The position numbers and the translations under genes are program-made. A DNA stretch of 64,000 nt from Eledone cirrhosa. Taxonomy: Eukaryota. How positions within the stretch are numbered: the stretch's first letter is position 1; each line of letters begins with the position of its first letter. The notes beneath the pieces were generated by a model that was not told the DNA's origin, did no database searches, and saw nothing but the letters and a program-made list of their open reading frames with translations. This document shows positions 2,266 through 46,182 of this stretch, piece by piece. The stretch lies in contig OZ024741.1 in the NCBI GenBank assembly GCA_964016885.1, positions 216,318,001 through 216,382,000 of the forward strand, given 5' to 3'.

Positions 2266-5200
2266 CTACAGCCGCATGACCAGAGTAGGCCCACTCACAC
2301 GGGCCATTCTCGCCACATTCATCCACCTTTCAGCAAATGTATTGGGGGGCAGCACTTCTCTCTCCACCCTCACCTTCCTTTCCAAGTGAAACTTGAAAAA
2401 GTTGATGAGGGATTGGCCGAAGAGAAAAGTGTCTGGCTTCAGTCCTTTCAACCTCGTCCACCATACAACCTCTTTCGCTACTGCCACCAGACAGAGGAAA
2501 ATTGCCTGCCCTTCCTGGCCAAAAGAAGGCGGCGGGTCGATCTTCACTATGGACGCGGCCGATAGCCGGATCCGTTCTACACGCGACAACAGCTGTTCAA
2601 CATAACTCCACAAGTCAGTAATGCACGGACACTGGACGAGTGCGTGCAGAACGGTTTCGTCGCTCTGCGTGCATCTCGGGCAGGTCCGTCTGACAGCACT
2701 TCCGTGCCTGTAGAGTTTATCTCGAACCGGCAGTGCCCCCCCCCCCCCGGTAGCACTGCCAAGCGAGGGATTTTTGGAAATTATCCATCGTCCCCGGCTC
2801 GAAAGTCCTCCGGTACAGACTGGTTAGTTCGACTTCGTTGACTCCCAGAGTCTCTCCGAGTGCGTCGTTGCACTTGCCCACCACTAATCCTCTATAGAAC
2901 TCGAGAGTGGAAGTTCCACTGACCGCATTGCCCGCCTGGTAGAGGGCAGTGAGTGCCTGGCAACATTCCAGATGCCAGTCACCCAGTCTCGGTCTCTTCT
3001 TGACCCAGGACTGCAACTCAGTCAAAGAAACGAGCTGCGGAAAGGCCCGTCTGACAAACAGCGACCACACCTGTTCACCGTTTAGGCAGAATATCTGGAG
3101 ATGCTGCAGCCTCAGCGCGTGCCTGCGCATCATTAGCCACGGCATGCCCAGCCCTCCACGTAGAGGGTGCTGGCAGCAGATGGAACGCCTCACCAGCGGA
3201 ACCTGACCCCTCCACAAGAATTTGAAGAGGAGCCGCTCCAAGATGGCGAGGCGCGAACGGGGGCAAGGGACGACAGTCAGACGGTAGTAGATGACGGACG
3301 CGATGTACGCGTTCGCCACCTCCGCCCGACCTTTCAGTGATAGCTTCATCCCAGCCCATTTCTGGGTGAGACTGACTACCCTGCCCGTCACCTCGTCCCA
3401 ATTCTTATCCACCTGGAGGTCTGGCCCGAACCAAACCCCTAGAAACTTTACCGGTCCGTCCGTCCAGCGCCTAACGACGCTGTTGGACGGCATGGACTTG
3501 CCTCTCCAGGTGCCGAGTTGCAAGCCTACTGACTTTTCCGGGTTAAGTTTTGCTCCCGTCAACCTTTCATATTCCTCCAATAAGTTGCCGACCACCTCGA
3601 TTTCTGAGGTGTCCGACACCATCACGGTGATGTCGTCCGCATAAGCCGACACAGCCTTTCCGCGTCCCGGTTCGAGGGGGCTGCCCTGCAACAGCTCCAG
3701 CTTCCGCAGTAAAGGCTCGAGAGTCAATACGTACAGAAAGGGGGAGAGAGGGCACCCTTGACGGACCGATCGGGAGACCTGAAACGGTTCCGAGAGGTGG
3801 CCATTAATTTTGACCATCGAGCAGGTGCCGCTGTGCATTGCAGCGATCCAGCTTCTGAAGACGGGGCCGAAGCCAGCCGCCTTGAGGACAGCCTCCAGGT
3901 ACCGATGGTCGACCCTATCGAATGCTTTCGATTGATCTAAATTGATCAGAGCCCCACCGAAGCCAGGTTTACACCCTACCCTCTCTATGATGTATCGCAT
4001 TAGGTGGAGGTTGTCGTGTATGGACCTGGTTGGGATTTCGCAAGTTTGCGCCTCCCCAACCAATTCCCCGACGACAAGCGCCAACCTCTTCGCTAACACC
4101 CTGGCCAAAATCTGAAACTCTGTGTTGAGCAGAGTTATGGGCCTGAAATTGTCTAATGTGTCCCTCTTGTTCTCGTCTTTCCTTATCAGCGTCACTACGC
4201 CCCGGCTCACAGAATTGGGAATACTCCCGTTTTGCTGCCAGTTGCAGTAGAGGGCTTCGAGGAGATTGGAGAACAAGTCTGGCATATTTACGTAAAGCTC
4301 GTAGGGCAGACCATCCAAACCGGGTGACTTGCGCCTCATGCAGCCTACAAGGGAATCCTGAATCTCGGCTGAAGTAATTGGCCTTTCGCAGCGCCCAGCG
4401 TCAGCCGTCAAGAGTTGCGGCAAGCCATCGAGGTATGGACTGAAGTCCGCCACCATCTCCGACCCGCCACTTCCCCCGAACAACCGAACAAAATGTTGGC
4501 GAAAGGCCTCACACATCCTCTTGGAATCGTTCATCTCGAGCCCCTCTCGGTCCGTCAAAGACCGAATCGTGGTTTTATTACCACGCTGCGCCTCTGCCAC
4601 GCGGGCCCATCGAACAGCTTTGGTTCCCTCGTTTCTCAGAGCACGCGCCTTAGCTCTGACAATGCAACCTTCGTGTTTCGCATTGAAGAAATGGTCTAAT
4701 GCCATTCTCGCCGCTAGCACATCAGTTGCAATGCCACTACCAATAGCCTCGTCTAACTTATCTACAACTCTCCCTCCTTTCTATTTTTCTCTAATGCTAC
4801 TTCTTTGCTAAACTCTATCGACATTACTCTAATCTCTCATTTGAGAGCCCCCCACCATCTATTGTTGACGACTCCCCCTGTCAACTTTTTCTTAACTAAA
4901 TTGTTGACCTGGTCCCTCTAAGCTTTACGTGCCGGAAATGACATGTTTAGCTTCCAGTAACCAGGTCCTAACCTACGCGTCTTATCTAGGTCGACCATAC
5001 AGATCACAAACTTGTGATCTGAATAGGCGACCGTTTCAAAACGTGGACAGCTTACACTATTTCTGTCTATTTTCATAATGAATATCCTGTCTATATACGA
5101 TCTAGATGACCCTATGCGGTTAGCCCAGGTCCACACTGGCGCATTAGGGAAATCTAGTCGGTACCTGTGTGAGAGTTGGAACTGGCTGATCAGGTTCTTG

Positions 5201-5694
5201 AGGCTTTTTCACCCCCCGCTCCTATCGGATACTCCCACACAGTCCCAGCGTGCGTCTAAGATGCCGTTCCAGTCCTCCGCTAACAGTAAAGGGCGAGACG
5301 TACCCAGAAAGGCTTCCAGGCGTCTAAAGAAGTCCGGCCGTTCTTCCACAGTAGGAGCATAGACGGCCATCAGTCTAAAGGCACCACCTTCATTATTGTT
5401 CACATCCAGGACCACCAACTTCCCGTCCGGGTCCCGGAAGATCGACCTTACCTCGAGATCTAGGCCTTTCCTAAACAGCACTGCCACCCCGCCTCCCATT
5501 CCCGGCTGGCTAACAGATGCAAAGATCTAATAGTCGTCGAAAATTGGGGCTAGTGCGCGCGTGTCGGAAATCCTGGTCTCGCTGGCTGCAATTACATCCA
5601 TTTCTATAGACCTGAGGTCGTTGAGCAGGTGACCCTGCTTCCAGGACGATCCCAGGCCTCGAACATTTAAACATCCTACTCTTAATACGGCCAT
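2266..5694 (-). pseudogene. ORF2 (APE endonuclease-reverse transcriptase) of copy B, several frameshifts/stops
   Basis: ORF pieces 5209..5499 (VYAP, DWN), 4918..5136 (SYID, SDHK, WKLN), 2717..4720 (KSPGLDG, FRPITLLN, DQSKAFDRV, RQGCPLSP, YADD), 2266..2613; ATG at 5694. Confidence 0.92.
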
Positions 5695-5725
5695 GTTGGC
5701 AGGTTAAACAGAGAGAGAGGAAGGT

Positions 5726-7687
5726 TTACTTACCTTCCGGGCTCTTGTGAAGGTCGGGTTGTTCGACCTCCATAGTTAGTGGGGTTTCTTTTGGGAACCC
5801 CTTTAAAAGTCTTGAAGTGGGTTTTACGTTCGGGGTTCCCACGTCCCGAGGAAAGCTGTCTCGTATTTCTTTGAATATGTCGAGCGACATTCGCACCAGA
5901 ACCAAATCTTCCGGCACGCGAAATGTGCTCGATTTAAAAATTTCCCCCTCTTTTTGTATATTTTCACTTCGTGCTACGAGAACCATCAGTTCCTTGTTGG
6001 CATTCCTGACGATCACGAAGTTTTGTATGTTTTGTTGGTGTGATTTTATTTGTTTGCGTAGCTGTGGTGGTGATGGTTTTGGTGGTGTTGTTTCGGTTGT
6101 ATCTGTGTTTGTTGTGAGTGCGATGTCTGTGGTTTCAGATGTTTGTGTGTATATTTGTTCTTGCGTCTGTTTCGGTTGTTTGCGTTTGGGGGATTCTGGT
6201 GATGGTGATGTTGATGTTGGTGTTATTGGAGAGATGTTTGCGTGGGTGGTGTCTGCGTTTTTTATTGTGGGTGCTTTTGTGCTTTGTTGAGTTTTTCTTT
6301 TCTTTTTGTGTTTCCTTTTTTGTATTTTGGGATTTCCCTCATTTTCACTACTGGTAGATGAGCGGTCTGTTTCTGTAAGTGTGTCTGTATGTATGTTTAA
6401 GGTTTTATTGGTGTGTGTATTTTGGGGGGGAGGGGTAATTTGACAGCTTTCCTCGTTTCCCCCCTGGGTGGTCAATGTTGGTGGTGGTATTTCTATTGGT
6501 ATTGTTGTTGGTGGTTTTGCCGGTGCAGGTGTTGGTTGTGGTCCTCACCCCGGCGTCGGCAGCAGTGGAGCCTTTCGACCCCTTGCCTCTTTCAGCAGTT
6601 GAGGGCAGAAAGCTCGCAAATGGGTTTTTTCCCCCACAAACAAAACACTGCGGCCTTTTGCCTTCGGTCATAATGTGAATGACAGTCACATTCTGAAGGC
6701 GGATGTGGTCTGGGATTGTCTTCACATTCTCGGGTCTGATCTGGAGAAGGATCTCTAGGTCAACCCCGGCCCAGTCCTCTCTGGCCGTTCTGGTCACGTC
6801 TATGAGGACTGTATCCGTCCCCTCCACAATCATACATCGCACAAGCCACCACATGTCAAGTCCTGGTTGGATTCTGGGAATGCTGAGACGGGCCGTTCTT
6901 TTTCCCATGTGGAAGGGGTACATTATGATCTTGCTGGTTTTGCAAGGAGTCATGGCGTGTTTCATCGCGAGGGCTTCTGACTTGAACAACGCCGAAATGG
7001 TGCCGTACTGTCTGCCCCTCTCTATGTACTGGGTGTCTTCTCTGATGCACCTCAGCGCGACTTCGATATCTTCTTGTGGGATTAACGCTGCCCTTTTGGT
7101 TTGTGCTGAGCTGCATCTATAATGCACCGTTTTGCGCTCCACTGCCTCAATAGCTTCTACCGGGACAGTTAAGTTGGCCCAAGTTTGCTCTTGCTTGATG
7201 AGCTTCCATGCCTGGGCCAACTTTTCATCTTTGTTTGAGAGGTCCATGTTGAAGCATGGCCTCCTTTTTGCTGCTGCCACAGCGAAAGTGGTATTGTTTT
7301 CGTTGGGGGTGTTGTTGACGTTGTTCTTGTTGGTGTTGTTGTTAGCACTGTCGCTGTTATCATTGTTGTCTTTGCTGCCACCGTTGTTCTCAGTGCAGTT
7401 GGTATTGTTGTTGTTGGTGTTGTCGCTATTTGTTTTCATGTTAGTGGTGTTGATATTGTTGTTGTATTTCTTTTTTTTTTTTTTGTTATCTGTATGTTCG
7501 TTGTCGCTGTTACTGTCATTTTTTTTCAAATTAGAGTTCTTATTGGTATCATTGGTGTCTTTGTTTACCTTGTTTGTGGTGGTGTTTCTATTATCAATGT
7601 GTGTTAATTTCGCTGTAGCGCTCCTCTCAACTTCTACGTCGTTGTCGCACGACAGCTGACATACCGCGGGGGGCGTGGCTCAGCCAT
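5726..7687 (-). pseudogene. ORF1 of copy B, frameshifted
   Basis: ORF pieces 6405..7529 (Asn-rich, HMGKRT, EGKRPQCFVC) and 5726..6475 (T/P linker + conserved C-terminal domain). Confidence 0.85.
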
Positions 7688-8337
7688 GTTTTTTTTCTTC
7701 GTAAATTTTTTAACATGTAAAAAAAAGTTCAAATATTTGGGCCAAAAGGCCCAAATATTATACTTTCCTCTTCACGGGGCAAAGTCTAAGGGCTTATATC
7801 CCTTACACAACAAGAAATATTTAACAACAAATAATTTAAACAGGCAAATAAAGCGACTTACTGTGAGCGAGCAAAATACGTCCGCTTAGACCAATAATAA
7901 TAATAATAATAATAATAGTGATAATATGCTATACAAGTTCCTTCTTGTTTTTACTGATGTTTCCTTTTCTCATACTATACAATGATGTATCCATCCTATC
8001 CTTAATTCCAGTGTGAAACGGAGAAAGGTTTTTAGTTTTAGCTAGCTAGCCGCCATTTCTGTTAGATAATACTACACCCTCAACATTTACACGATAATAA
8101 CAGACTACACAAGTTCCTTTTTAACCGTAGAAATTTATAGAGTTTAAAGGCAAACAAGTTGTAAACGTGTGCTATAATAACTACACATTACGTTTGAATT
8201 AGTATTATCAAACAGGAATATCAATTGAGTCTTTACTGTTTATCAAAGGAACACGACTCGCCTGATGTGTAAAGCAAGCTCTGATACTTCTCTATAATGC
8301 TTTCAATTACACAGATATTGGATAGCCTATAAACCTT

Positions 8338-9229: not shown

Positions 9230-9239
9230 CATTTATAAT

Positions 9240-10370: not shown

Positions 10371-10379
10371 AATAATAAT

Positions 10380-11219: not shown

Positions 11220-11400
11220 TATAGTTACATACATACATACATTTATACATGCATTCATAGGTATCTACATACATGCATAAATACATATATACATTCATTC
11301 ATAAATGCATACATACAAGGTTACATACATAGATGCTTATATACATTCTCGCATACATACATGCATGTATATGCATACATACAAATACACACACATACAC

Positions 11401-11472
<72 letters not shown>

Positions 11473-11518: not shown

Positions 11519-11567
<49 letters not shown>

Positions 11568-23616: not shown

Positions 23617-23849
23617 GATAGATAGATAGATATATTTCTTTATTTACCATAAAGGCATAAAAAGAAGGGACAAATACAAAGGGGGAGTTTACATACAATC
23701 GAGTAAAAAGGGTATAAAATGAAAATAATTGAAAATAACCTCAAAAGGGAGGGGACGTGATGGGGGTTGCACACACTCCCGAAAAAGTGTGCAATCCTTT
23801 GCCCGGGGAGCACATGGAGAAGGTGCTCCCCTCTCCTTTACTTCTTTAC

Positions 23850-26800: not shown

Positions 26801-27268
26801 ACATGCTCCTGCATAGTCCCAACGTGCATCTAGGATGTCATTCCAATCCCCCGCTAGAAGCAGGGAACGCGACGTTCCCAGAAAAGTCTCCAAACGCTGG
26901 AAGAAGTCGGGCCGTTCAGCTCCGAAAGGGGAGTAGACGGCGACCAGTCTCAAGGCCGCACCTTCACTACTGCCAACGTCTAGCACCAACAAACGACCCT
27001 CCGGGTCCGAGTTCGCAACCTGTACGGCAAGACCCAGGTGTTTTTGCAGCAGTACGACAACCCCACCCCCACCTCCAGGTTGACAGAGAGATGCATGCAC
27101 CTCAAAGTCATCGAAGGTAGGGGCCAGCTGCCGCACGACGCTGATTCGAGTCTCACAGATAACCATTACATTTATACCACATGACCTGAGGTCATTTAGA
27201 AGCTTTGCTTGCTTCCAAGTTGAGCCCAGGCCACGTGCATTCAAACATCCTACTCTTAACACATCCAT
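23850..27268 (-). pseudogene. ORF2 (EN-RT) of copy D, frameshifted; EN SDH motif altered to TGH
   Basis: ORFs 25922..27268 (EN), 25368..26087 (RT N-half), 23850..25298 (YADD, CPRC..H..C). Confidence 0.92.
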
Positions 27269-27301
27269 GTGGGCGGCAGAGCCAAAGGAGAGTGTAGAGA
27301 C

Positions 27302-29202: not shown

Positions 29203-29699
29203 ACGATTGAAAATTTTTTTTTTTTTTTTGCCACTAAATTTTAAGAAAACAGGTTTTTCACCTCTAGGATGGGTAAAGATGAGCTGACCCACCGTCTGAC
29301 AGTTCAGACGGGGGGGGGGGTCAAGCTACACAATAGTATCAAAATTAAATTTGAACTCACAAAATTTCCGCAATAAATTTGAACAAAACTTCTGCGCGAA
29401 GTGAATTACATCCACACTGTAGAACAGACGACAGCTAGATCTGGTCGTTAGATAGATATATTTCTTTATTAGCCACAGGGGCACAAAAGAAGGGGACAAA
29501 TACAAAGGGGGAAGTTTACATACAATAAAAACGTGTAAAATGTTATCACAGATGGAATTTAAAAGTTAGTCGATTTTCCCCAATAGAGGGAGACAGTTTA
29601 TATGGGTAACACATACCCCCGAAAAAAAAATGTGCAACCCTTATCTCCAGGAGTACGAAGAGCTTGTACTCCTTTCCTCTCCTCCTCCTTTTCCTCAAC

Positions 29700-32600
29700 C
29701 TACAGGCTGATATAGAGAGAAGGCCCATTCACTCGGGCCATTCTCGCCACTTTCACCCACCTTTCATAAAACTTGCTGGGGTACAGCACCTCTCTCTCCA
29801 TCCTGATTCTTCTTCCAAAGTGGTATTTGAAAAAAAGAATCAGTTGTTGGCCGGAGAGAAAGGTGTCTGACCTCAGCCCTTTCAACCTTGTCCACCATAC
29901 AACCTCTTTCGCCAAAGCTATCACACAAAGGAAAACCGCCTCTCCTTCGTTTTTGAATGAGGGTGGCGGTTTGATCATGACAATGGACTCGGTGGTCAAC
30001 TGGATTGGTCCACCCGCGACAATAGTCGTTCTACATAGCCCCACAGGTCAGTGACGCCCGGGCAGTGTATGAATGCGTGCGCGAGGGTTTCTTCGTCTCG
30101 CACGCACCTCGGACAGATCTTTTTTGCAGGGTCCCTGTCCGGGCGCCCATGTCTGTAGAGCTTGTCTCGAACTGGTAGAGCTCCTCGGTAGCACTGCCAG
30201 GCCAGGGACTTTTGGAAGTTGTCCATCGGTCCCGGGCGGAAGGTCCTACCGAACAGACTGGCCAGTTCATCTTCCTCTACGCCTAGAGTTTCACCGAGCG
30301 CGTCGTCGCACTTGCTGCGGACCAACCCTCTATAGAATGACGAAGTGGAGTCTCCACTGATCGCCGGGTCCGCCTGCCAGAGGGCTGTGAGCGCCTGAGC
30401 ACATTCGATGTGCCAGTCGCCCATTTTCCTCGGTCTCTGCTTGACCCAGGACTGCAGCTCGGTCAGCGAGACGAGTCGTGGGAAGGCTCGCCTCACGAAC
30501 GGGGCCCCCACCGGTTGTCCGGTGAGGAATACGTAGAGATGCCGCAGCCTGAGCGCGTGTTTGCGCATCGTCAACCACGGCATCCCCAGCCCTCCGTTAG
30601 AAGGGTGTTGGCAGCAGATGGATCTTCTCACCAAAGGAGCCCGCCTCTTCCAAAGGAATCGGAAGAGCGCGCGCTCCATTTTGGCGAGCGTTTTGGCTGG
30701 ACAAGGCACGACAGTCAAGCGGTAGTAGATGGCGGACGCTATAAAAGTGTTCGTCACCTCCGCTCGACCTTTCAAGGATAGTTTGCACTCGGCCCACTTC
30801 TGGGTGAGTGCAAAGACCTTGGCCGTCACTTCGTTCCAGTTCTTCTCCACCTGGAGGTCCGGACCAAACCAGACCCCGAGCAGCTTTACCGGTCCTTTCG
30901 TCCAGCGTCCGACGACGCCATCGAAAGGCATCGGTCTGCCTCTCCACGATCCGAGTTGCAAACCGATGGACTTGTCCCGGTTCAGCTTCGCTCCTGTGAG
31001 ACTTTCTTATTCCTTTAGTAAGGTGCCGACTTCCTCGATTTGCGAGGCGCTCGACACCATTACTGTCACGTCGTCGGCGTAGGCCGACGCCGCTTTCCGC
31101 AGTCCCGGTTCCAGAGGGATGCCCTGCAATAGCTCCAGCTTCCGCAGTAGTGGCTCGAGAGTCAGTACGTACAGAAGGGAGGAAAGAGGGCATCCCTGTC
31201 GAATGGATCGCGTAATATGGAACGGCTCCGAGAGGTAACCGTTCACCTTGACCCTTGAGCAGATGTTGCTATTGTGCATTGCAGCAATCCAGCCCCTGAA
31301 CACGGGTCCGAAGCCTGCCGCCTCGAGCACCGCATCCAGGTAACGATGGTCAACCCTATCGAAAGCCTTAGACTGATCCAAATTGATCAGGGCCCCACCG
31401 AAGCCGGGTTTACACCCTACCCTCTCTATGATGTATCGCATGAGGTGGAGGTTGTCGTGTATGGACCTGGTCGGGATCGCGCATGTCTGCGCTTCTCCCA
31501 CCAGGTTCTCGGCGACAAGCGCCAGCTTCTTTGCCAACACCTTGGCCAAAATCTGTAACTCTGTGTTTAGAAGAGTTATGGGCCGGAAGTTGCCTATGTC
31601 ATCCCCCTTATTCTCGTCCTTCCTGATTAGTGTGACCACGCCCCCGGTTACAGAACTGGGAATTCTCCCGTTCTGTTGCCAGTTGCAGTAGACCGCTTCC
31701 AGGAGACCGGAGAATAAGTCCGGCATTGCTACGTAAAATTCGTAGAGTAGACCGTCGAGACCTGGAGATTTGCGTTTGCCGCATTGGCTCAGCGCGTCCC
31801 CTATCTCAGTGGCTGAAATCGGCTTTTCGCAGAACTTCGCCTCGCCGTCCGAGAGTCGCGGTAGGCCGTCGAGGTATGGACCGAAATCCATAGCCTCTCC
31901 CGGCGCGCCGCTCCCCCCGAACAGCCGAGCAAAGTGCCGCTGAAAAGCCGCACACATCTGCTTCGGCTCACGTATCACGCGTCCGTTTTGGTCCTTCAAA
32001 GACCGAATCGTGGACTTGTTGCCACTTTTTGCCTCCGTCACTCGGGCCCAGCTAACAGCTTTGGCTCCCTCGTTTCCCAGAGCACGTATTTTGCTTCTGA
32101 CAACGCAGCCCTCGTGCTTTGCATCGAAGAACTGGTCCAAGGCCGTTCTCGTTGCTAGCACGCTGGCTACGTTGCCACTTCTAATTGCCTCTTCTACTTT
32201 ATCTACCAGTTCCTTCTCGGTTCTATTTCTATCTAACGCTAATTCTTTACTAAAAATCTAACTGCCCTCTTGAGAGAGTACCACCATCTGTTGTTGACAA
32301 TGGCCCCTGTCAAGTGCTGTTTAACTAAAGTGCTAATCCGTCTACTGTAGGCTTTGCTTGTCGGTAACGACAAGTTCAGCTTCCAGTAGCCGGGTCCTTG
32401 TCTATGGGTTCTATCAAGGTTGGCCATGCAGGTCACTAGTTTGTGATCTGAATAGGCAAAATGAACAAAATGACAGCTTAACATGTCCCTATCCTTATTT
32501 CTAACTAGAACCCTATCTAGGTACGATCTAGATGTTCCGCTACGATTACTCCACGTCCACAGTGGCGCAGTCGGAAAATCTAGTCGATATCTATCGGCCA

Positions 32601-33119
32601 GATCAAATCGGTCGATTAACTGTTTGAGGCTGTTACACCCCCCTTTATCGGGACATGCTCCCACATAGTCCCAACGTGCATCTAGGATTCCATTCCAGTC
32701 CCCACTAAAAGCAAGGAGCGGGACGTTCCCAGAAAAGTCTCTAGACGTTTGAAGAAGTCTGGCCGCGGTGTCCCGGATGGGGCATATGCGGCCACCAGCC
32801 TGAAGGCTCCACCTTCACTACCGTCAACGTCTAGGACCACCAGTCGACCCTCCGGGTCCAGATGTACCGTCTGTGTTACGAGGCTCAGGTGTTTCCGCAG
32901 CAAAACGGCAACTCCGCCCCCACCCCCCGGTTGACAGAGAGATGCGTAGATCTCAAAGTCATCGAAGATAGGGGCCAGCTGTCGCTCGCCGTGGATCCTG
33001 GACTCGCAAATGGCTACCACATCCAAACTGTGCGACCTGAGGTCGTTTAAGAGTTTGCCCTGTTTTCAGGGCATCCCCAGGCCGCGTACGTTCACACATC
33101 CAACTCTTATATTGGCCAT
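29700..33119 (-). pseudogene. ORF2 (EN-RT) of copy E, several frameshifts/stop
   Basis: ORFs 32682..33026, 32239..32664, 31007..32161 (YADD), 29996..30961, 29700..30044. Confidence 0.92.
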
Positions 33120-33152
33120 GTTGGTGCTGAAAAGTTAAAAGAGGAAAAGAGA

Positions 33153-35020
33153 TCACTCACCCTTCGCCTCCTGGGGACCAGACCGCACGATTTCCATGGG
33201 GTTGTTGGAGGGGTTGTCTGGATGGGTGGTGGTTTCCGGCGGGGTGGGGACGCAGATGTTTGGTGGGGTGGGGTCTGGTGGGATGGGGGTGTCTGGGGTG
33301 GGGAGGCATTTGAGAAGGACGCGGTTGAGTGGTTTCACGCAGGAATTCCCCACATCCTTCTCAAATGTTTCTTTTAGGGACCTATAAGTTTGTATAGGGA
33401 CCCTAATCAGTTTTAGGTTCAGTTTTTTGCTATTTTTTATTGAGTGGGCGAAAGTTTTCCCTTCGGTGAAAACCGAAGGGTCGTTCGTGATGGTCTCCAT
33501 TAGTGTTTTGTTTTCAGTGTTTATGTAAGTGTAAGTGTAATTTTCTTGTGTTGTGTTTGTTTTTGTCTGTAGTTCTTGTGTGTGCTTTCGTTTTGTTGTA
33601 GGTATTTTTTTTTCAGGAGGTGGGGGTTTTGTTTGTGATATTTTTGTTGTTTGTGTTGGTGGTTGTATGTTTGTGGTAGTGTTTGCTGGTTTTTTGCTTT
33701 TGTGATGTCTTTTCTTTCTTTTCGAGCGATGGGGTTCTCCCTCGTCTTCACTGGGTGATGGCGAGATAGCCTCATCTGTTGTATCGTCTGTGTGATTGGG
33801 GAGGGGTATGTCTTGGGGAGCTGTTGTGTCTGTATGTGATTTTGCAGTGGTTTTAGGTGGAGTGGGGTTGGGTGGGACTGTGTTTGTTGTGGTTATTTTT
33901 GTGTGTTGGTGTTGTTGTTGTTTTGATGGGTGTTCATTAGTTTAGGACAGGAAGCCCTCAGGTGACCCCTGCTAAAGCAATGGTAACATGAAGGCCGCCT
34001 ACCCTCAACCGAAAGGTTTATGTAGGTGAGTCCGTCCAGGAGTACACGCTGTGGGATCATAGCTATTCGCTCTGGGCTCATTTGCACCAGAACTTCAATG
34101 CTCGTCCCATTGAATACATCTCTGGGGGACTTGCCTACTGACAGTATTCTGTCTTCATCAAAATTGATGAAGCCGCACAGTATCCACCATATGTTCACCT
34201 TTGGTGTGACACTTGTGATTCTGATCTTTTGTGTCCTTTTTCCCATGTATGTAGGGAAAAAGGTGTACAGGTTGGATACAATTGGCGACACAGAGTAATT
34301 TTGGGCCGTCAATTGATCCTTCATGAGTACCGAAATACTCCCAAAAAGTTTGCTTCTTTGAATGAATGCAATATCATTCATTGAATCTTTGAAAACCAGT
34401 TCAATATCTTTCTGTGACAATTGGACTGGTTTTCGGGTAGAATTGGAAACTGTCCTAAAGACTATCGTTTTGAGAGCAGTTTCCTTGCGAATTTCTACCG
34501 GAGAATTGATGCTGAAAGCACCATTTTTTTCGAAGGTGACATATCTCTTAGCGTCCTTTAAAAGGTGTTCAGCATTTGTTATGTCGAGATATATCAATTG
34601 TTCTTTCTTTTGAACTTTCTCCGCAAAGGAGATTTTTGGTTTCTTTGTGGAATCCGTATTGGTGGTGTTGTCATTATTGTTGTTACTGTTGTTGTTATTC
34701 TTGTTGTCACCGATGTTGGTATCATCCGTATTTTCCTTGGTGTTGTTGTTGTCTTTGATGCTGGTGTTATTGGCGTTGTCTTTATTTTTTTCTTTGTTTT
34801 TGTTATCATTGTTGCTTTTATCATCATTATTGGTTTTGCTGTTATTTTTGTTGTCATTGAGCTGTTTGGTGTCATTTGTGTTGTTTGAATGTGAATTCGT
34901 TTTTTTATTTTCATTTTGTGTTTCCATCTCTATAGTATCTAGTGAAGAAGACGTTGTTGACTGCGAGCTTTGTAGTCTTACCGCCTCTCCACCACCATTA
35001 TCGTTGGACGCAGCGTTCAT
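33153..35020 (-). pseudogene. ORF1 of copy E, frameshifted in the linker
   Basis: ORFs 33893..35020 (CYHCFSRGHLRASC) and 33153..33500. Confidence 0.88.
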
Positions 35021-35489
35021 AACGTAATCAAAATTTTACAATATTTTTTCCAAGATTCGATGGAGAAAAATTTTTTTAATGGATATTCCGCCCCTGAAGG
35101 TGCGAAAATGAGTTGACCCACCACTTGAAGGTCCAGATGGGTGGTCAAGTTACAGAATGATATGAAATTGAACTAAAAACTCACGTTTTTTTCTTACATA
35201 AATTAACGGAAACTTCTCCGCGATGTGACACACGACTGATAGAGAGATAGATAGATTTCTTTATTAACCACAAGGGCGCAACAAGAAAGGGTACAATACA
35301 AAGACATGCCGGGGATTTTACATACAGTCGTGTAAAAAATATAAAAACAAACAATTTCAACAATCGAAATCCCCAATAGGGGGGAGGCGCCACAAATGGG
35401 TTGTTTAATACCCCGTCGATAGAACAACCCTCAACTCAAGGAGCGTGTTGTGCAAGTGCTCCTTTCTTCCTTTTGCTCTCTTCCTCAAC

Positions 35490-38400
35490 CTACAGGCTTA
35501 TAAACAGAGAAGGCCCAATCACTCGGGCCATTTTCGCTTCATTCACCCACCTTTCAGTAAATTTACTGGGGTGCAGTGCCTCTCTCTCCACCCTGATTCT
35601 CCTTCTAAAGTGATACTTAAAGAATGGAATCAATTGTTGTCCGGAGAGAAAGGCATCTGTCCTCAGTCCTCTCAACCTCGTCCACCATATAACTTCTTTC
35701 ACCATAGCCACCGTACAGAGGAAAACCGCCTCTCTTTCGTTTTTGAAAGAGTCTGGCGGTTTGATCCTTACTATGGACTCGGCAGTCAACTGTATTTGTC
35801 CCATACGCGACAGCAGTTGTTCTGCATAGTTCCACAGGTCGCTTACGCCCGGGCAGTGTACAATTGCGTGCAGAACTGTTTCAATGTCCTGCGCACATCT
35901 TGGACACGTCCTCTTGGAAGGATCCCTGCCAGGGCGTCCGTGCCTGTAGATCTTGTCACGAACCGGTAGAGCTCCTCGGTAGCACTGCCAGGCCAGGGAC
36001 CTCTGGAAGTTGTCCATAGGTCCCGGGCGGATAGTCCTACCAAACATACTGGTGAGCTCATCGTCTTCGACGCCCAGAGTCTCTCCGAGCACGTCGTCGC
36101 CCTTGTAACGTACAATCCCTCTATAGAATGTCGAAGTGGAGTCTCCACTGATTGCTGCGCCCGCTTGCCAGAGGACTGTGAGCGCCTGAGCGCATTCAAT
36201 GTGCCAGGCGCCCATCGTTTTCGGTCTTTTCTTCACCCAGGACTGCAGCTCCGTTAGCGAGACGAGCTGTGGGAAAGCCTGTCTCACAGACGGTGCCCAC
36301 ACCGGTTGGGGGTCGGTGAGGAATACCTGGAGATGCTGCAGCCTCAGCGCATGTTTGCGCATCATCAGCCACGGCATTCCCAGCCCTCCGTTGGAAGGGT
36401 GCTGACAGCAGACGGATCTCCTCACCAGCGGAGCCTGCTTCTTCCACAGAAACTGGAAGAGCATGCGTTCCATCTTGGCGAGGTGTTCACGGGGACAAGG
36501 CACGACAGTCAAGCGGTAGTAGATGACGGACGCTATGAAAGTGTTCGCCACCTCCGCTCGACCTTTCAAGGACAGTTTGCACTCTGCCCACTTCTGAGTG
36601 AGTGCAAACACCTTGGCCGTGACCTCGTTCCAGTTTTTCTCCACCTGGAGGTCTGGAACGAACCAGACCCCGAGCAATTTCACCGGTCCGTCCGTCCAGC
36701 GTCCAACGACGCTGTCGGATGTCATCGGTTTGCCTCTCCACGTACCGAGTTGCAAACCGACAGACTTGTCTGGGTTTAGTTTTGCTCCCGTCAGCGTTTC
36801 GTATTCTTTCAGTATGTTGCCGATCACCCCGATTTCCGAGGTGCTCGACACCATTACTGTCACGTCGTCGGCATAAGCCGACGCCGCTTTGCGCAGTCCC
36901 GGTTCTAGGGGGATGCCCTGCAACAGCTCCAATTTCCGCAGTAGTGGCTCTAGAGTCAATACATACAGAATGGAGGAGAGAGGGCATCCCTGTCGAATGG
37001 AACGCGTGATTGCGAACGGCTCCGATAGGTAGCCGTTCACCTTGACCCTCGAGCAGATGCTGGTGTGCATCGCCTCGATCCATCCTCTGAACACGGGACC
37101 GAAACCGGCCGCCTTGAGAACCGCTTCCAAGTATCGATGGTCGACCCTATCGAATGCCTTAGACTGATCCAAGTTGATCAGAGCCCCACCGAAGCCGGGT
37201 TTACTACCCACCCTCTCTATGATGTATCGCATGAGGTGGAGGTTGTCGTGTATAGACCTGGTCGGGATTGCACACGTTTGCGCTTTCCCTACCAGGTTCT
37301 CGACGACAAGCGCCAACCTCGTCGCTAGCACCTTGGCCAAAATCTTTAACTCTGTGTTGAGCAGAGTTATGGGCCTGAAGTTGTTAATTTCGTCCCCCTT
37401 GTTCTCGTCTTTCCTGATCAGCGTTACTACGCCCTTGCCTGCAGAACTGCGAATTCTCCCGTTCTGCTGCCAATTGCAGTAGACGGCTTCGAGGACGCCA
37501 GAGAACAAGTCCGGCATGCCTATGTAAAATTCGTAGGGTAGACCATCTAGACCGGGTGACTTGCGTTTCCCGCAGCGGCCCAGAGCGTCCCGTATCTCAG
37601 TGTCCGTGATCGGTCTTTCGCAGAACTCGGCGTCCGTGTTCGAGAGACGCGGCAGGCCGTCGAGGTATGAACTAAAGTCCATTGCCCCGTTCGGCTCACC
37701 GTCGTTCTGCTCAAACAGTCGCGCAAAGTGCCGCTGAAAGGCCGCGCACATTTGCTTGGGGTCAAGTAGCACGCGTCCGTTTTGGTCTTTCAAAGACCGA
37801 ATCGTGGACTTGTTGCCACTTTTTGCCTCCGCCACTCGGGCCCAGCTGACAGCTTTCGCTCCTTCGTTTCCTAGAGCACGTGTTTTGCTTCTGACCACGC
37901 AGCCTTCGTGTTTCGCATCGAAGAACTGGTCCAGTGCCGTTCTCGACGCTAACACTCTAGCCGCGTTGCCACTTCTAAGTGCCTCCTCTACCTTGGCTAC
38001 TAGTTCTCTTTCTATTCTGTTTTTCTCTAAGGCTAACTCTCTGCTATACCCTATCGATTCTATTCTAATTGCTTTCTTGAGAGAGTACCACCATCTATTG
38101 TTGACGATGGCTCCCGTTAACTGTTGCTTGACTAGTTTACTTATCCGTTCACTGTAAGCTTTACGTGCCGGCAACGACACGTTCAGCTTCCAGTATCCGG
38201 GACCCTGTCTATGTATTCTATCACGGTTGACTAAGCAGACGACTAACTTGTGATCTGAATAGGCAACCATGTGCATTCGTGGACAGCTTAACATATCCTT
38301 GTCCCTTTCTCTAATGAAGAACCTATCTAAATACGATCTAGATGTCCCACTGCGGTTTACCCACGTCCACTGTGGTGCAGTCGGGAAATCCAGTCGATAC

Positions 38401-38935
38401 CTATCGGCCAGTTGGAATTGGCCGATTAAAGTTTTGAGGCTGTTGCACCCGCTCTACTGGGACATGCTCCCACATAGTCCCATCGTGCATCTAGGATACC
38501 ATTCCAGTCCCCCACTAAAAGTAAGGAGCGAGACGTTCCCAGAAAAGACTCTAGACGCTTAAAGAAGTCTGGCCGTGATTGCGATTGCCCGGTCGGGGCA
38601 TAAACGGCCACCAGTCTGAAGCCTCCACCTCCGATACTGTTCACGTCTAGGACTACCAGTCTACCCTCCGGGTCCAAGTGTACTTGCTGTACTCCGACGT
38701 CCAGGTTCTTCCGAAACATAACAGCCACTCCACCTCCACCTCCTGGCTGACAGAGAGATGCGTAGATCTCAAAGTCGTCGAAGATGGGGGTTAGTTGCTG
38801 CTTGTTGTGGATTCTGGACTCGGTGATGGCTATCACATCCATACTGTGTGACCTAAGGTCGTTTAAAAGTTGGCCCTGTTTCCAGGGCATCCCTAGGCCA
38901 CGCACATTCACGGTTCCAACTCGTAAACCAGCCAT
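35490..38935 (-). pseudogene. ORF2 (APE endonuclease + RT + CCHC Zn finger) of copy F, apparently one frameshift near 38450
   Basis: 38426..38935 (NVRGL, ITES, VYAP, GDWN) + 35490..38294 (SDHK, WKLN, RT motifs incl. YADD, CPRC..ETVLHAIVHC). Confidence 0.93.
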
Positions 38936-38976
38936 GTTGGTGAAGAAAAGATGGAGAAAAAGGACGAAAGGTGCAC

Positions 38977-40857
38977 TTACCTTTTCGTTTCCTGGAGATC
39001 GGGTTGTTCAATCTCCATTTGGGTGCTGGATGGGGTGTTGGGTGGGGTGGGGAAACCTTTCAACAGGACGCGGTTGATGGGTTTGTGGCAGGGGTTGCCC
39101 ACGTCCTGTGAAAATTTAATTTTCAGGTCTTTATAGGTTTCCATAGAAACCCTTATAAGTTTAAGGTGTGGAGACGATTCTGCCTTGACGAAAGTTTTGC
39201 CCTCCGTCTCCACCTTGGGGTTTTGGGAGATGACCTCCATCAAACTCTTGTTGTTTGTGTTGATGTATGCGTATTGTTGTTTGTGTTTTTGTTGTATTGT
39301 TTTAGTTTGTTGTTCATCTGGGAGTTTTCTTTTTATGGTGGGTGCTTGTGTTTGGGGTGGTGTTGGTGCTGGTTTTGCTGATAGGGCGGTGTTTGACTGT
39401 GGTGTTGTTTGTGTTGTTGTTTGTGTCTGTGGTTGTGTGTTGGTGTTGGTGATTGGAGTTTTGGGGGTTTTGTGGTGTCTCTTTTTTTGTTTTTTGGATT
39501 TCCGCGGTTCTCCCTCTTCTTCACTTAAAGAAGGAGAAGCAGCTTCATCCGTCGATGAATAATCATCGTCAGGTGTGTGGGGTAAGGGTATGTTGTGTGG
39601 TGGTGGTGGTGTTTCGGTATGTGTGTTTGTGGTAGTGTTTGATGGAGTGGGATGGAGTGGGGATGTGTTCTTCAGGGGTGTTGTCTCTGTTTTTTCTGTT
39701 GTTGTTGGTTGAGTGTCTGTTTGTTTTGGTGTGGTTGCTCGTTTCGTCTGTCGTTGTACTTGTGGTGGTGGTGGTGGTGGTTGTTTTGGTGTTGGTGTTG
39801 GTAATAGCGTTTTTTTTATGATGTTGCTGTTGTGTGTTTGTGGACAAGAGGCTTTTAGGTGAGATGTGCTACCACAGCGAAAGCAGTGAAATTTTCTTCC
39901 TTCTACCGAAATGTTTATTTTGTTGTTATTATCAATAACGACTCTTTCGGGTATTTTGGAGATTCACTCCGGTTTCATTTGCAACAGAATCTCCAAATCG
40001 GTGCCCGCCCACCTTTGTCGAATGGATTTTCGTATCGAAAGTATTATGTCTGTTTCTGGCTCTACGAAGCCAGCCAAGATCCACCAGATGTTAATGCTTG
40101 GAGGTATGTTTTTTATTTTTATTTTTTGTGTCCTTTTCCCCATGTATGTAGGGAAAAAGGTGTATGCTTTTGACACTATTGGTGTCACAGAGTTTTTTTG
40201 GGCCAGTGTCTCGCTTTTAAACAGTACGGAAACGCTTCCGTACTGTTTTCCTCGCTGGAGAAAATCGACATTTGCTAGAATCTCCTTGAAAGAATCTTCT
40301 ATATCTGACTGATTAACAAATGTCGGTTTTCTTGACGAATTTGACACAGTCCTAAAAGTGACTGATCGGCGGTTTGTGTCTTCCTTTATTTCAAGGGGTG
40401 AGTTAATTCTAAACCCACCTCTTTCTTCGAAAGTTACAAATTTTCTCCCTTGCTGGAGCATATCTCTTGCGTTGGAGATATCAAGATTTATAAAATCTTG
40501 TTTCTTGTTGACTGTGTCAGCAAAAGACATTTTCTTTTTTTGTGTGATGTTGTTGTTGATAATGATGTTATCGTTGTTGGAAATTTTATGTGTAGATGTA
40601 TCTGTAGAGTTGTTGATGTCTTTTTCATGTGTATGTATGTCAATGGGTTTTTTTGCCGTGTTTTCCCGTGTGTTATTGTCATTTTTCTCCGCTTCGGCGG
40701 TAGAAATTGTAACATTTTCAAATGTTGATATATTTTTTTCTTTTGTGACAGTATCTATGGCAACGTCCATAGCAGCAGAAGCAGATATAACGTTAATATC
40801 TGCCTCTTTCTCTCTCTTTTCACTATTAACGTTCTCCAGCGTTCTAGTGTTGCTCAA
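38977..40857 (-). pseudogene. ORF1 of copy F, multiple frameshifts
   Basis: ORFs 39964..40857 (MSFA, YMGKRT), 39569..39847, 38977..39243 (C-terminal domain). Confidence 0.85.
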
Positions 40858-41071
40858 GTTTTTTTTTACTTTGTAAAATTTGATATTTTAAGACAAACTT
40901 TTAAATAAAATTTTCGCCCCTACAGGGGCGAAAAATGGTATTACCACCCAGCTGACAATTCAGCTTGGGGGTTAATCTACAAAGTGTTGTATTTTTTTCA
41001 AACAATTAGATCGGTTTTTTGCATAGAAATTAACAAAAAACTTACCGGCGATATTCCACACGTTAGACAGA

Positions 41072-41079
41072 AAGATAGG

Positions 41080-41167
<88 letters not shown>
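41072..41167. repeat. (GATA)n spacer between F and G
   Basis: direct inspection. Confidence 0.95.
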
Positions 41168-41168
<1 letters not shown>

Positions 41169-41409
41169 TTCATTATTAGCCACAGGGGCACAAAAGAAGG
41201 GGACAAATACAAAGGGGGAAGTTTACATACAATAAAAACGTGTAAAATGTTATCACAAATGGAATTTAAAAAGTTAGTCGATTTTCCCCAATAGAGGGAG
41301 ACAGTTTATATGGATAACACATACCCCCGAAAAAAAAAAATGTGCAACCCTCATCTCCAGGAGTACGAAGAGTTTGTACTCCTTTCCTCTCCTCCTCCTT
41401 TTCCTCAAC

Positions 41410-44234
41410 CTACAGGCTGATATAGAGAGAAGGCCCATTCACTCGGGCCATTCTCGCCACTTTCACCCACCTTTCATAAAACTTGCTGGGGTACAGCACC
41501 TTTCTCTCCATCCTGATTCTTCTTCCAAATTGGAATTTGAAAAAAAGAATCAGTTGTTGGCCGGAGAGAAAGGTGTCTGACCTCAGCCCTTTCAACCTTG
41601 TCCACCATACAACCTCTTTCGCCATAGCTATCACACAAAGGAAAACCGCCTCTCCTTCGTTTTTGAAGGAGGGTGGCGGTTTGATCATGACAATGGACTC
41701 GGTGGTCAACTGGATTGGTCCCACCCGCGACAATAGTCGTTCTACATAGCCCCACAGGTCAGTGACTCCCGGGCAGTGTATGAATGCGTGCGCGACGGTT
41801 TCTTCGTCTCGCACGCACCTCGGACAGATCTTTTTTGCAGGGTCCCTGCCCGGGCGCCCATGTCTGTGGAGCTTGTCTCGAACTGGTAGAGCTCCTCGGT
41901 AGCACTGCCAGGCCAGGGACTTTTGAAAGTTGTCCATGGGTCCCGGGTGGAAGGTCCTACCGAACAGACTGGCCAGTTCATCTTCCTCTACGCCTAGAGT
42001 TTCACCGAGCGCGTCGTCGCACTTGCTGCGGACCAACCCTCTATAGAATGACGAAGTGGAGTCTCCACTGATCGCCGGGTCCGCCTGCCAGAGGGCTGTG
42101 AGCGCCTGAGCACATTCGATGTGCCAGTCGCCCATTTTCCTCGGTCTTTTCTTGACCCAGGACTGCAGCTCGGTCAGCGAGACGAGTCGTGGGAAGGCTC
42201 GCCTCACGAACGGGGCCCACACCGGTTGTCCGGTGAGGAATACGTAGAGATGCCGCAGCCTGAGCGCGTGTTTGCGCATCGTCAACCACGGCATCCCCAG
42301 CCCTCCGTTAGAAGGGTGTTGGCAGCAGATGGATCTTCTCACCAAAGGAGCCCGCCTCTTCCAAAGGAATGGGAAGAGCGCGCGCTCCATTTTGGCGAGC
42401 GTTTTGGCTGGACAAGGCACGACGGTCAAGCGGTAGTAGATGGCGGACGCTATAAAAGTGTTCGCCACCTCCGCTCGACCTTTCAAGGATAGTTTGCACT
42501 CGGCCCACTTCTGGGTGAGTGCAAAGACCTTGGCCGTCACTTCGTTCCAGTTCTTCTCCACCTGGAGGTCCGGACCAAACCAGATCCCGAGCAGCTTTAC
42601 CGGTCCTTCCGTCCAGCGTCCGACGACGCCATCGGAAGGCATCGGTTTGCCTCTCCACGATCCGAGTTGCAAACCGATGGACTTGTCCCAGTTCAGCTTC
42701 GCTCCTGTCAGACTTTCGTATTCCTTCAGTAAGGTGCCGACTTCCTCGATTTGCGAGGCGCCCGACACCATTACTGTCACGTCGTCGGCGTAGGCCGACG
42801 CCGCTTTCGGCATTTCCGGTTCCAGAGGGATGCCCTGCAATAGCTCCAGCTTCCGCAGTAGTGGCTCGAGAGTCAGTACGTACAGAAGGGAGGAGAGAGG
42901 GCTCGCTGTCGAATGGATCGCATAATATGGAACGGCTCTGAGAGGTAGCCGTTCACCTTGACCCTTGAGCAGATGTTGCTGTTGTGCATTGCAGCAATCC
43001 AGCCCCTGAACACGGGTCCGAAGCCTGCCGCCTCGAGCACCGCATCCAGGTAACGATGGTCAACCCTATCGAAAGCCTTAGACTGATCCAAGTTGATCAG
43101 GGCCCCACCGAAGCCGGGTTTACACCCTACCCTCTCTATGATGTATCGCATGAGGTGGAGGTTGTCGTGTATGGACCTGGTCGGGATCGCGCATGTCTGC
43201 GCTTCTCCCACCAGGTTCTCGACGACAAGCGCCAGCCTCTTTGCCAACACCTTGGCCAAAATCTGTGTTTAGCAGAGTTATGGGCCGGAAGTTGCCTATA
43301 TCATCCCCCTTATTCTCGTCCTTCCTGATTAGCGTCACCACGCCCCCGGTTACAGAACTGGAAATTCTCCCGTTCTGTTGCCAGTTGCAGTAGACCGCTT
43401 CCAGGAGACCGGAGAATAAGTCCGGCATTGCTACGTAAAATTCGTAGGGTAGACCGTCAAGACCTGGAGATTTGCGTTTGCCGCATTGGCTCAGCGCGTC
43501 CCCTATCTCAGTGGCTGAAATCGGCTTTTCGCAGAACTTTGCCCCGCTGTCCGAGAGTCGCGGTAGGCCGTCGAGGTATGGACCGAAATCCATAGCCTCT
43601 CCCGCCGACCCCCCCCCCCCCCGAACAGCTGAGCAAAGTGCCGCTGAAAAGCCGCACACATCTGCTTCGGCTCACGTATCACGCGTCCGATATCTAGTCG
43701 ATATCTATCGGCCAGGTCAAATCGGTCGATTAACTGTTTGAGGCTGTTACACCCCCCTTTATCGGGACATGCTCCCACATAGTCCCAACGTGTATCTAGG
43801 ACTCCATTCCAGTCCCCCACTAAAAGCAAGGAGCGGGACGTTCTCAGAAAAGTCTCTAGACGTTTGAAGAAGTCTGGCCGCGGTGTCCCGGATGGGGCAT
43901 ATGCGGCCACCAGCCTGAAGGCTCCACCTTCACTACCGTCAACGTCTAGGACCACCAGTCGACCCTCCGGGTCCAGATGTACCGTCTGTGTTACGAGGCC
44001 CAAGTGTTTCCGCAGCAAAACGGCAATTACGCCCCCACCCTCCGGTTGACAAAGAGATGCGTAGATCTCAAAGTTATCGAAGATGGGGGCCAGCTGTCGC
44101 TCGCCGTGGATCCTGGACTCGCAAATGGCTACCACATCCATACTGTGCGACCTGAGGTCGTTTAAGAGTTTGCCCTGTTTCCAGGGCATCCCCAGGCCGC
44201 GTACGTTCACACATCCAACTCTTATATTGGCCAT
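41410..44234 (-). pseudogene. ORF2 of copy G, deleted and frameshifted
   Basis: ORFs 43503..44264, 43120..43659, 42873..43259, 41410..42840 (YADD). Confidence 0.9.
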
Positions 44235-44260
44235 ATTGGTGCTTAAAAGAGGAAAAGAGA

Positions 44261-46182
44261 TCACTCACCCTTCGCCTCCTGGGGACCAGGCCGCACGATT
44301 TCCATGGGGGTGTTGGAGGGGTTGTCTGGATGGGTGGTGGTTTCCGGTGGGGTGGGGACGCAGATGTTTGGTGGGGTGGGGTATGGTGGGATGGGGGTGT
44401 CTGGGGTGGGGAGACATTTGAGAAGGACGCGGTTGAGTGGTTTCACGCAGGAATTCCCCACATCCTTCTCAAATGTTTCTTTTAGGGACCTATAAGTTTG
44501 TATAGGGACCCTAATCAGTTTTAGGTTCAGTTTTTTGCTATTTTTTATTGAGTGGGCGAAAGTTTTCCCTTCGGTGAAAACCGAAGGGTCGTTCGTGATG
44601 GTCTCCATTAGTGTTTTGTTTTCAGTGTTTATGTAAGTGTAAGTGTAATTTTCTTGTGTTGTGTTTGTTTTTGTCTGTAGTTCTTGTGTGTGCTTTCGTT
44701 TTGTTGTAGGTATTTTGTTTTCAGGAGGTGGGGGTTTTGTTTGTGATGTTTTTGTTGTTTGTGTTGGTGGTTGTATGTTTGTGATAGTGTTTGCTGGTTT
44801 TTTGCTTTTGTGATGTCTTTTCTTTCTTTTCGAGCGATGGGGTTCTCCCTCGTCTTCACTGGGTGATGGCGAGATAGCCTCATCTGTTGTATCGTCTGTG
44901 TGATTGGGGAGGGGTATGTCTTGAGGAGCTGTTATGTCTGTATGTGATTTTGCAGTGGTTTTAGGTGGAGTGGGGTTGGGTGGGACTGTATTTGTTGTGG
45001 TTATTTTTGTGTGTTGGTGTTGTTGTTGTTGTGGTGGTGGTGTTGGTGGTTGTGTTGTTTTGATGGGTGTCGGCAGAAGAGCCTTTTTTTTGGTTCATTA
45101 ATTTGGGACAGGAAGCCCTCAGGTGACCCCTGCTAAAGCAATGGTAACATGAAGGCCGCCTACCCTCAACCGAAAAGTTTATGTAGGGGAGTCCGTCCAG
45201 GAGTACACGCTGTGGGATCATAGCTATTCGCTCTGGGCTCATTTGCACCAGAACTTCAATGCTAGTCCCATTGAATATATCTCTGGGGGACTTTCCTACT
45301 GACAGTATTCTGTCTTCATCAAAATTGATGAAGCCGCACAGTATCCACCATATGTTCACCTTTGGTGTGACACTCGTGATTCTGATCTTTTGTGTCCTTT
45401 TTCCCATGTATGTAGGGAAAAAGGTGTACAGGTTGGATACAATTGGCGACACAGAGTAATTTTGGGCCGTCAATTGATCCTTCATCAGTACCGAAATACT
45501 CCCAAAAAGTTTGCTTCTTTGAATGAATGCAATATCATTCATTGAATTTTTGAAAACCAGTTCAAATTCTTTCTGTGACAATTGGACTGGTTTTCGGGTA
45601 GAATTGGAAACTGTCCTAAAAACTATCGTTTTGAGAGCAGTTTCCTTGCGAATTTCTACCGGAGAATTGATGCTGAAAGCACCATTTTTTTCGAAACTGA
45701 CATATCTCCTAGCGTCCTTTAAAAGTTGTTCAGCATTTGTTATGTCGAGATATATCAATTCTTCCTTTTTTTTTAACTTTCTCTGCAAAGGAGATTTTTG
45801 GTTTCTTTGTGGAATCCGTATTGGTGGTATTGTCATTATTGTTGTTATTGTTGTTGTTATTCTTGTTGTCACCGATGTTGGTATTATCCGTATTTTCCTT
45901 GGTGTTGTTGTTGTCTTTGATGCTGGTGTTATTGGTGTTGTCTTTATTTTTTTCTTTGTTGTTGTTATCATTGTTGCTTTTATCATCATTATTGGTGTTG
46001 CTGTTATTTTTGTTGTCATTGAATTGTTTGGTGTCATTTGTGTTGTTTGAATATGAATTCGTTTTTCCATTTTCATTTCGTCTTTCCATCTCTATAGTAT
46101 CTAGTGAAGAAGACGTTGTTGACTGCGAGCTTTGTAGTCTTACCGCCTCTCCACCACCATTATCGTTGGACGCAGCGTTCAT
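44261..46182 (-). pseudogene. ORF1 of copy G, frameshifted
   Basis: ORFs 45730..46182, 44961..46076 (CCHC knuckle), 44261..44608. Confidence 0.88.

Follow-up and report, generated by a model that had tools for sequence, protein, structure and literature searches.

The question raised by this locus is whether the whole second open reading frame (ORF) of a retrotransposon can serve as a spliceosomal intron. The 64,000-nt stretch analyzed here (the window; Eledone cirrhosa assembly GCA_964016885.1, contig OZ024741.1, positions 216,318,001 to 216,382,000) contains seven two-ORF elements that lack long terminal repeats (non-LTR elements A–G), all on the minus strand. A preliminary description of the window had proposed that ORF2 is bracketed by splice sites, with the donor on the ORF1 stop and the acceptor on the ORF2 stop, and we followed this arrangement through the 3.0-Gb, microsatellite-rich genome. 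A copia-like, partly spliced ORF2 intron that would yield an ORF1-only mRNA is the best single explanation, to which we assign a probability of roughly 0.55; an intron covering the whole of ORF2 is likely, though not one that runs strictly from stop to stop.

Conservation of the donor at the end of ORF1

The donor was examined in the first 30 loci by genome position. For comparisons between families, we fetched 40 of the first 100 listed places, spread over families, together with 19 intact copies and one odd match, and these copies represent 17 families or subfamilies. ORF2 trees separate an (ATT)n clade (B group, I, J) from a (TCTA)n clade (D–H, K, M), named after the tails of the elements. 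Fifteen representatives, 65–92% identical, were used in the tables of site scores, conservation and stops past the junction; I2 and N are absent from these tables and were handled separately. Splice sites were scored with a generic matrix, not one derived from the host.

The ORF1-end donor ranked first of 279–336 GT sites in 14 of the 15 representatives (one tie) and second in the other, with a mean score of 11.2 against 7.5 for the best other conserved donor column. It was found in 29 of the 30 loci taken by position, the remaining one having G+1 changed, and a 24-nt motif spanning the donor of element F has 480 exact copies genome-wide in the unspliced form. G-1, G+1, T+2, G+5 and T+6 are invariant in all 15 representatives, compared with 21 of 118 four-fold sites, and in most families some of these invariant bases also belong to the ORF1 stop codon. 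The flanks of the donor turn over across families, while every change within it stays among donor-compatible bases. Donor phase is 0 in K, 1 in the B group, E and J, and 2 in the remaining families. In K and D2, ORF1 reads through the donor with no stop overlapping it, which shows that the donor is not a stop-codon context. We conclude that the donor is conserved under selection throughout the clade, its five invariant bases being U1-pairing positions.

All six donors reported for the window (5733, 22968, 27305, 33160, 38980 and 44268, minus strand) were confirmed, overlapping TAA, TAG or TGA in phase 1 (B, E, G) or phase 2 (C, D, F). The suggestion that conservation acts on the donor consensus and not on the stop codon is borne out across the genome as well as in the four families of the window.

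The trait is clade-specific, since a comparable donor near the ORF1 stop was found in only one of 23 distant L1/Tx1-like elements (those with both ORFs readable among 55 metagenome loci, 23–33% identical), and the donor as a general Tx1 feature is thereby ruled out. In that one element (L110), GGG|GTGAGT lies 5 nt before the ORF1 stop and ranks 2 of 331, by chance or convergence.

A word-based search for ORF1 homologs returned nothing, and a profile search found homologs; none of the database ORF1 proteins found by the latter has a clearly spliced C-terminus. Two ORF1 proteins with only 30% identity, GAB1605864.1 of Argonauta hians and an ENA protein, terminate in EGKS and QGK, respectively, which agrees, at the protein level only, with the coding of a phase-1 donor. 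These C-termini hint at the age of the donor. The Octopus sinensis model XP_036364761.1 has a longer ORF1 tail that is not interpretable from protein alone.

Two other uses of the donor were rejected. We infer from its varying phase that a conserved in-frame ORF1–ORF2 fusion, made by splicing to an internal acceptor, is ruled out, and a micro-intron of 34 nt that would end shortly upstream of the ORF2 ATG fails because its CAG is confined to E (AAG in G) and is out of frame.

A predicted ORF1-only mRNA

The position of the donor at the ORF1 end, where a splice would keep all of ORF1, is one argument for an ORF2 intron. A fraction of the transcripts would be spliced from this donor, the acceptor being a weak one at the ORF2 end or shortly past it: in most families the TAG stop or an AG 7 nt ahead of it, in the I lineage a U-tract with CAG about 160 nt into the 3' untranslated region (UTR). 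The predicted product is an mRNA of about 2.5 kb in which the whole ORF1, closed by a new stop from exon 2, is followed by a short 3' UTR. Lacking the 3.7-kb tail, which should make the bicistronic RNA a target of nonsense-mediated decay, this mRNA would supply ORF1p in excess, whereas the intron-retaining RNA would make ORF2p and, through cis preference, be the only form to retrotranspose. Splicing would remain partial, as it does in copia-type elements, because a strong donor is paired with a weak acceptor.

The reading frame past the predicted junction is favorable to this proposal. When the donor is joined to the AG of the ORF2 stop (stop-AG), 12 of 14 representatives reach a stop in the donor's phase no later than the third codon (p = 0.014 by label shuffle, with families that are related and not independent; background 0.11 per site). 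Adding N, which matches, and I2, which does not, gives a computed 13 of 16 families with a phase-matched stop, a count that helps the ORF1-only mRNA reading. These stops are TGA, TAA or TAG and change along with donor phase from clade to clade, which on the tree amounts to about two or three independent adjustments.

On the acceptor side, all six CTGTAG|GT ORF2 ends described in the window (2266, 19620, 23850, 29700, 35490 and 41410, minus strand) were recovered, and E, F and G have the further AG 7 nt before the TAG. The pyrimidine-rich stretch that had been assigned to every ORF2 end proved to be uneven: the polypyrimidine and acceptor context is fair in K and D, poor in B and its relatives and in J, and fair in E, H and M when the upstream CAG is counted. 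The CAG 7 nt upstream outscores the stop-AG in D2, E, H, M and M2. An acceptor at the ORF2 stop is plausible.

The stop-to-stop rule does not extend to all families, given that K and D2 have no stop on the donor and that ORF2 of family I ends in TAA. The GT of the proposed intron is kept clade-wide, and the stop-AG is lost in I, the commonest family (32 of the first 100 listed copies). All seven I-type 3' ends (7/7) have the U-tract and a strong CAG in the 3' UTR, with scores of 6.6–10.4, while the sister family J has CAC in 4/4 where I has CAG, and keeps the TAG. I2, sister to I (support 100/98), carries both the 3' UTR CAG and the TAG, consistent with gain of the new acceptor before loss of the old one in a single event. 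In other families the U-rich distal UTR avoids AG (7 observed vs 39 expected; GA 24).

The purine-rich tract after the acceptor, previously described as enhancer-like, is present; part of it is base-paired in 3' UTR stems that show compensatory changes, so a structural role is possible and a role as splicing enhancer is not required. The 3' UTR stem-loops (e.g., window 35262–35489) are conserved amid low sequence identity, with compensatory changes in 9 of 30 predicted pairs, and are a possible recognition signal for ORF2p.

Evidence against a spliced ORF2

Several results weigh against splicing of this kind. The stop-AG ranks 2–104 of 245–272 AG sites and scores poorly in B, J and F (rank 22–104). 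Seven internal ORF2 AG columns average higher, and conserved, better-scoring AGs lie within ORF2 at +451, +1875, +2838 and +2974. The TAG is kept in 14/15 representatives, which is not above background, as 10 of 25 two-fold synonymous sites equal it. Branch points are mostly absent, with a YTRAY match in only 2/15, bearing out an earlier caution about their weakness. F, E2 and I2 have no prompt stop at the TAG junction; F and E2 would read on for 27–32 codons past it, or would stop at once if the upstream AAG were used. Moreover, the upstream-AG option and the I-lineage acceptor are both post hoc, and they give the test additional freedom.

The genome searches gave no sign of copies derived from the predicted product. 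ORF1-only non-autonomous copies had been expected as a by-product, but six junction searches with exact degenerate motifs, which limit sensitivity, found no spliced genomic copy in the (TCTA)n clade, in the B group or for three I acceptors (the J junction was not searched). One match to a junction motif proved to be an unspliced copy of a new family, N. An open-ended search behind the family I donor returned nine copies with point changes, small indels or inversions, none of them spliced; this search is blind to exons with A at the third or fourth base, which were covered by a further junction search with 0 matches. These zero spliced copies stand against 12,753 unspliced ORF2 ends counted genome-wide in the (TCTA)n clade, one subclade only, although a copy would need no more than about 250 nt of 3' sequence to include the junction. 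Deletions internal to ORF2 in the copies have GT-AG ends in 0/14 cases. An RNA without ORF2 would need mobilization in trans, and for this reason the lack of copies weakens the splice without refuting it. Within the sensitivity of the exact motifs, it does dispose of the expected ORF1-only copies.

None of the 15 joints listed, out of 618 in contigs over window positions 23640–41050 (run type unrecorded), lies at a predicted junction, all 15 coming from the three large of four contig runs. One contig of the small run X4 (type likewise unrecorded) crosses the acceptor of element D unspliced. In the three large runs, depth is several-fold greater over ORF2 than over ORF1, as 5'-truncated copies would give; run X4 has a flatter depth across the two ORFs, and contig depth cannot rank the parts of the gene.

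Alternative explanations

The mediocre acceptor next to a strong donor leads to the question of whether the site binds U1 snRNP without productive splicing, shielding the long, GC-rich ORF2 from premature 3'-end formation or raising RNA output, with TAG|G being an inherited Leu codon plus stop. Such a role would account for the success of family I without a stop-AG and for the zero spliced copies, and it has a precedent in the plant copia element EVD, where U1 at the donor also represses premature termination (PMC5580714). We nevertheless regard this main alternative as unlikely, because introns contain 0–2 AATAAA each (none in 8/15), about as composition predicts, and it leaves unexplained the position on the last ORF1 codon, the phase-matched exon 2 stops and the CAG of the I lineage.

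It is less probable still that the donor is spliced to internal or variable ORF2 acceptors (e.g., +451, +1875) as a self-attenuation switch, giving frameshifted RNAs that are degraded or still yield full ORF1. In its favor, several AG columns inside ORF2 are kept in 14/15 representatives and score above the stop-AG, and barley BARE1 has a short intron with a frameshift stop after gag (PMC5580714). These internal AGs, however, are fixed by ORF2 coding, the three donor phases would make the product of any fixed acceptor a fusion or a frameshift depending on the family, and the nine copies from the open-ended family I search include none that is spliced. Finally, coincidence with descent, in which a stop-codon or reinitiation context resembling a donor was copied through related families, could draw on the stop codons within GTAAGT, GTAGGT and GTGAGT, on the single ancestor of all families and on the strong donor in one of the 23 distant elements, but it is largely refuted and very improbable, as the motif outlasts phase changes, loss of the overlapping stop and flank turnover over 65–92% identity, and every change in it remains donor-compatible.

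Comparison with known systems

For the whole-ORF2 intron, the closest working model is copia of Drosophila melanogaster, in which an intron covers all of POL and a spliced gag RNA is produced (PMC5580714). Copia is an LTR element with one long ORF and demonstrated splicing, while the octopod LINE (long interspersed nuclear element) is a non-LTR element with two ORFs, ORF1 having its own stop, and its splicing is predicted. Plant Ty1/Copia elements such as Arabidopsis EVD (shGAG RNA) have a conserved donor that sets splicing strength, a stop soon after the junction and the second, anti-termination role of U1 (PMC5580714). The conserved donor and the stop just past the junction are common to both groups, the latter as a prediction in the LINEs. 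In the plant elements a short intron is coupled to premature polyadenylation, whereas in the octopod model the whole enzyme gene would be removed and the normal 3' end kept.

Human L1 is likewise a LINE with splice sites, functional there and predicted here. Its spliced integrated retrotransposed elements (SpIREs) number 131 of 6,609 full-length L1PA1-6 copies (~2%), and the spliced L1 RNAs keep ORF2 and move in cis (PMC5860796); in SpORF2 the 5' UTR or ORF1 is removed and ORF2 kept (PMC2896524). This outcome is the opposite of the octopod model, and the authors judge it harmful; ORF1-bearing short L1 RNAs in human arise by premature polyadenylation. Spliced copies are thus present in the human genome, while the junction searches found none in the octopod genome. 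HAL1 and the ORF1-only telomeric elements of Drosophila encode ORF1p only (PMC5753468; PMC13534243) and are non-autonomous families at the DNA level, in contrast to the octopod clade, where the searched junctions gave no ORF1-only copy; the clade is not of the HAL1 type.

LINEs produce an excess of ORF1p over ORF2p and escape nonsense-mediated decay, both usually credited to translation. Selection for a donor on the last codon of ORF1 points instead to a role of RNA processing, which would be convergence with copia elements. We tentatively suggest, at slightly less than even odds, that this octopod clade converged on the copia and retroviral solution, in which the endonuclease–reverse transcriptase gene is a regulated intron and splicing sorts an ORF1-only translation pool from an unspliced replication pool, with the acceptor replaced once (family I), the donor kept and the arrangement predating the Argonauta split. 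Through the donor, the splicing machinery of the host could then switch more than 11,000 copies on or off, intact young ones included. Even without the splice, a U1 site maintained for so long in a LINE needs explaining.

The impression that such an intron had no prior description in L1/Tx1 LINEs agrees with literature listings and the opening lines of abstracts, which gave no report of a whole-ORF2 intron for any non-LTR element (Repbase Reports, supplements and subscription papers being outside this scope). A 2026 repeat annotation of Octopus vulgaris describes 13 recently active L1-Tx1 families, and the terms "intron" or "splic" are absent from its main text (PMC13282606).

Repeat targeting and ORF1 types were compared with published elements (PMC3812793; PMC5203782). 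The apurinic endonuclease (APE) elements Kibi (TC), Koshi (TTC) and Dong (TAA) insert in simple repeats, other than the (TCTA)n and (ATT)n that flank the octopod LINEs, and the portion of the source available mentions no splice signal for them (PMC3812793).

Identity and families of the elements

The elements are L1/Tx1-type non-LTR retrotransposons. Exo_endo_phos, RVT_1 and zf-RVT exceed the Pfam cut-offs in ORF2 of element D, and an intact 1139-aa ORF2 copy retains the catalytic motifs. ORF1 has one CCHC knuckle, invariant in 10/10 proteins; the zf-CCHC profile matches 6/10 (best E = 0.002), and no RRM match was found in the ORF1 proteins examined. The elements have no LTRs and end in AATAA(A/T) followed by (TCTA)n or (ATT)n. 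The Tx1 label is a provisional one, founded on architecture and repeat targeting rather than on a tree with named references; Kibi and Koshi are members of the Tx1 group. Among named homologs, the closest come from Argonauta hians for ORF2 (61%) and from three Octopus species for ORF1.

A degenerate endonuclease motif gave 11,448 ORF2 starts genome-wide, against 16 for a reversed control. These starts, from the whole clade, are numerous relative to the ORF2 ends of the one subclade, a rough comparison between different motifs that suggests an unusually high share of long insertions.

The two tail types track two ORF2 subclades, and copies form arrays. Members of the (TCTA)n and (ATT)n subclades stand head to tail and apparently insert into each other's tails (window 19400–46400 and 1990–7900; L015–L020). 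In the window, A and B end in or abut (ATT)n, and C–G are array members separated by (TCTA)n. The features are collected in Table 1.

Table 1. Retrotransposon features of the window, with positions counted from its first nucleotide
Feature	Positions	Strand	Remarks
Element A, 5' UTR and ORF1 start	1..1990	-	cut by the window edge before the donor
Element B, 3' UTR (candidate exon 2)	1995..2265	-	phase-1 stop one codon past the junction; AATAAA at 2000-1995, then (ATT)n
Element B, candidate intron (3468 nt)	2266..5733	-	spacer and whole ORF2; ATG at 5694; reverse transcriptase (RT) domain; frames broken
Element B, donor AAG|GTAAGT	5728..5736	-	phase 1; ORF1 ends ...EGK, then TAA
Element B, 5' UTR and ORF1	5726..7900	-	frameshifted copy; approximate 5' end adjoins an (ATT)n tract
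Head-to-tail array G-F-E-D-C	19400..46400	-	every element has AATAA(A/T), then (TCTA)n; approximate ends
Element C, candidate intron (3349 nt)	19620..22968	-	no AG 7 nt upstream of TAG
Element C, donor AAG|GTAAGT	22963..22971	-	phase 2; F-like family; large deletions in this copy
Element D, candidate intron (3456 nt)	23850..27305	-	APE endonuclease, RT, zf-RVT; predicted spliced ORF1 has the same last residue, then TAA
Element D, donor AAG|GTAGGT	27300..27308	-	phase 2; TAG
Element E, candidate intron (3461 nt)	29700..33160	-	CAG 7 nt upstream of TAG scores better; immediate phase-1 stop only via the TAG end
Element E, donor AGG|GTGAGT	33155..33163	-	phase 1; TGA
Element F, candidate intron (3491 nt)	35490..38980	-	spliced at the TAG end, ORF1 would gain ~27 residues, mostly basic; via the AAG 7 nt upstream, it would stop in two codons
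Element F, donor AAG|GTAAGT	38975..38983	-	phase 2; TAA
(TAGA)n tract	41064..41168	+	(TCTA)n tail of G and site where F begins
Element G, candidate intron (2859 nt)	41410..44268	-	internally deleted by 592 nt; ends of the deletion not GT-AG
Element G, donor AGG|GTGAGT	44263..44271	-	phase 1; E family

Individual families show further peculiarities. A search aimed at other Tx1 clades in the genome recovered nothing but intact copies of this clade. At least 40 copies of family B3 keep an unbroken ORF2 frame of 1150 codons, and 14 of the 19 fetched (L145–L163) have an unbroken ORF1 as well; as so many copies keep both frames, the family is probably young. In family K (L068–L072), ATA replaces the ORF2 ATG of other families in 5/5 copies and overlaps the ORF1 TAG, and the first in-frame ORF2 ATG lies downstream of the first endonuclease motif. 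One K copy (L069) still has an open 625-codon ORF1 frame and an open 1156-codon ORF2 frame, and by its sequence the family is a candidate for non-AUG reinitiation or frameshifting. Recombinant copies also occur: L053 joins a B-type 5' part to an I-type 3' end, and L013 and L037 are J-like/I-like mosaics in which the ORF1 end (45 nt) is doubled, the first donor being lost and the second kept.

Outside the elements of Table 1, two fragments resemble the C-termini of other LINEs. The one at window 63212–64000 (minus strand) has no Pfam match and is presumably RTE-like, and the one at 55485–55991 (plus strand), which has a CCHC motif, we take to be R2/R4-like.

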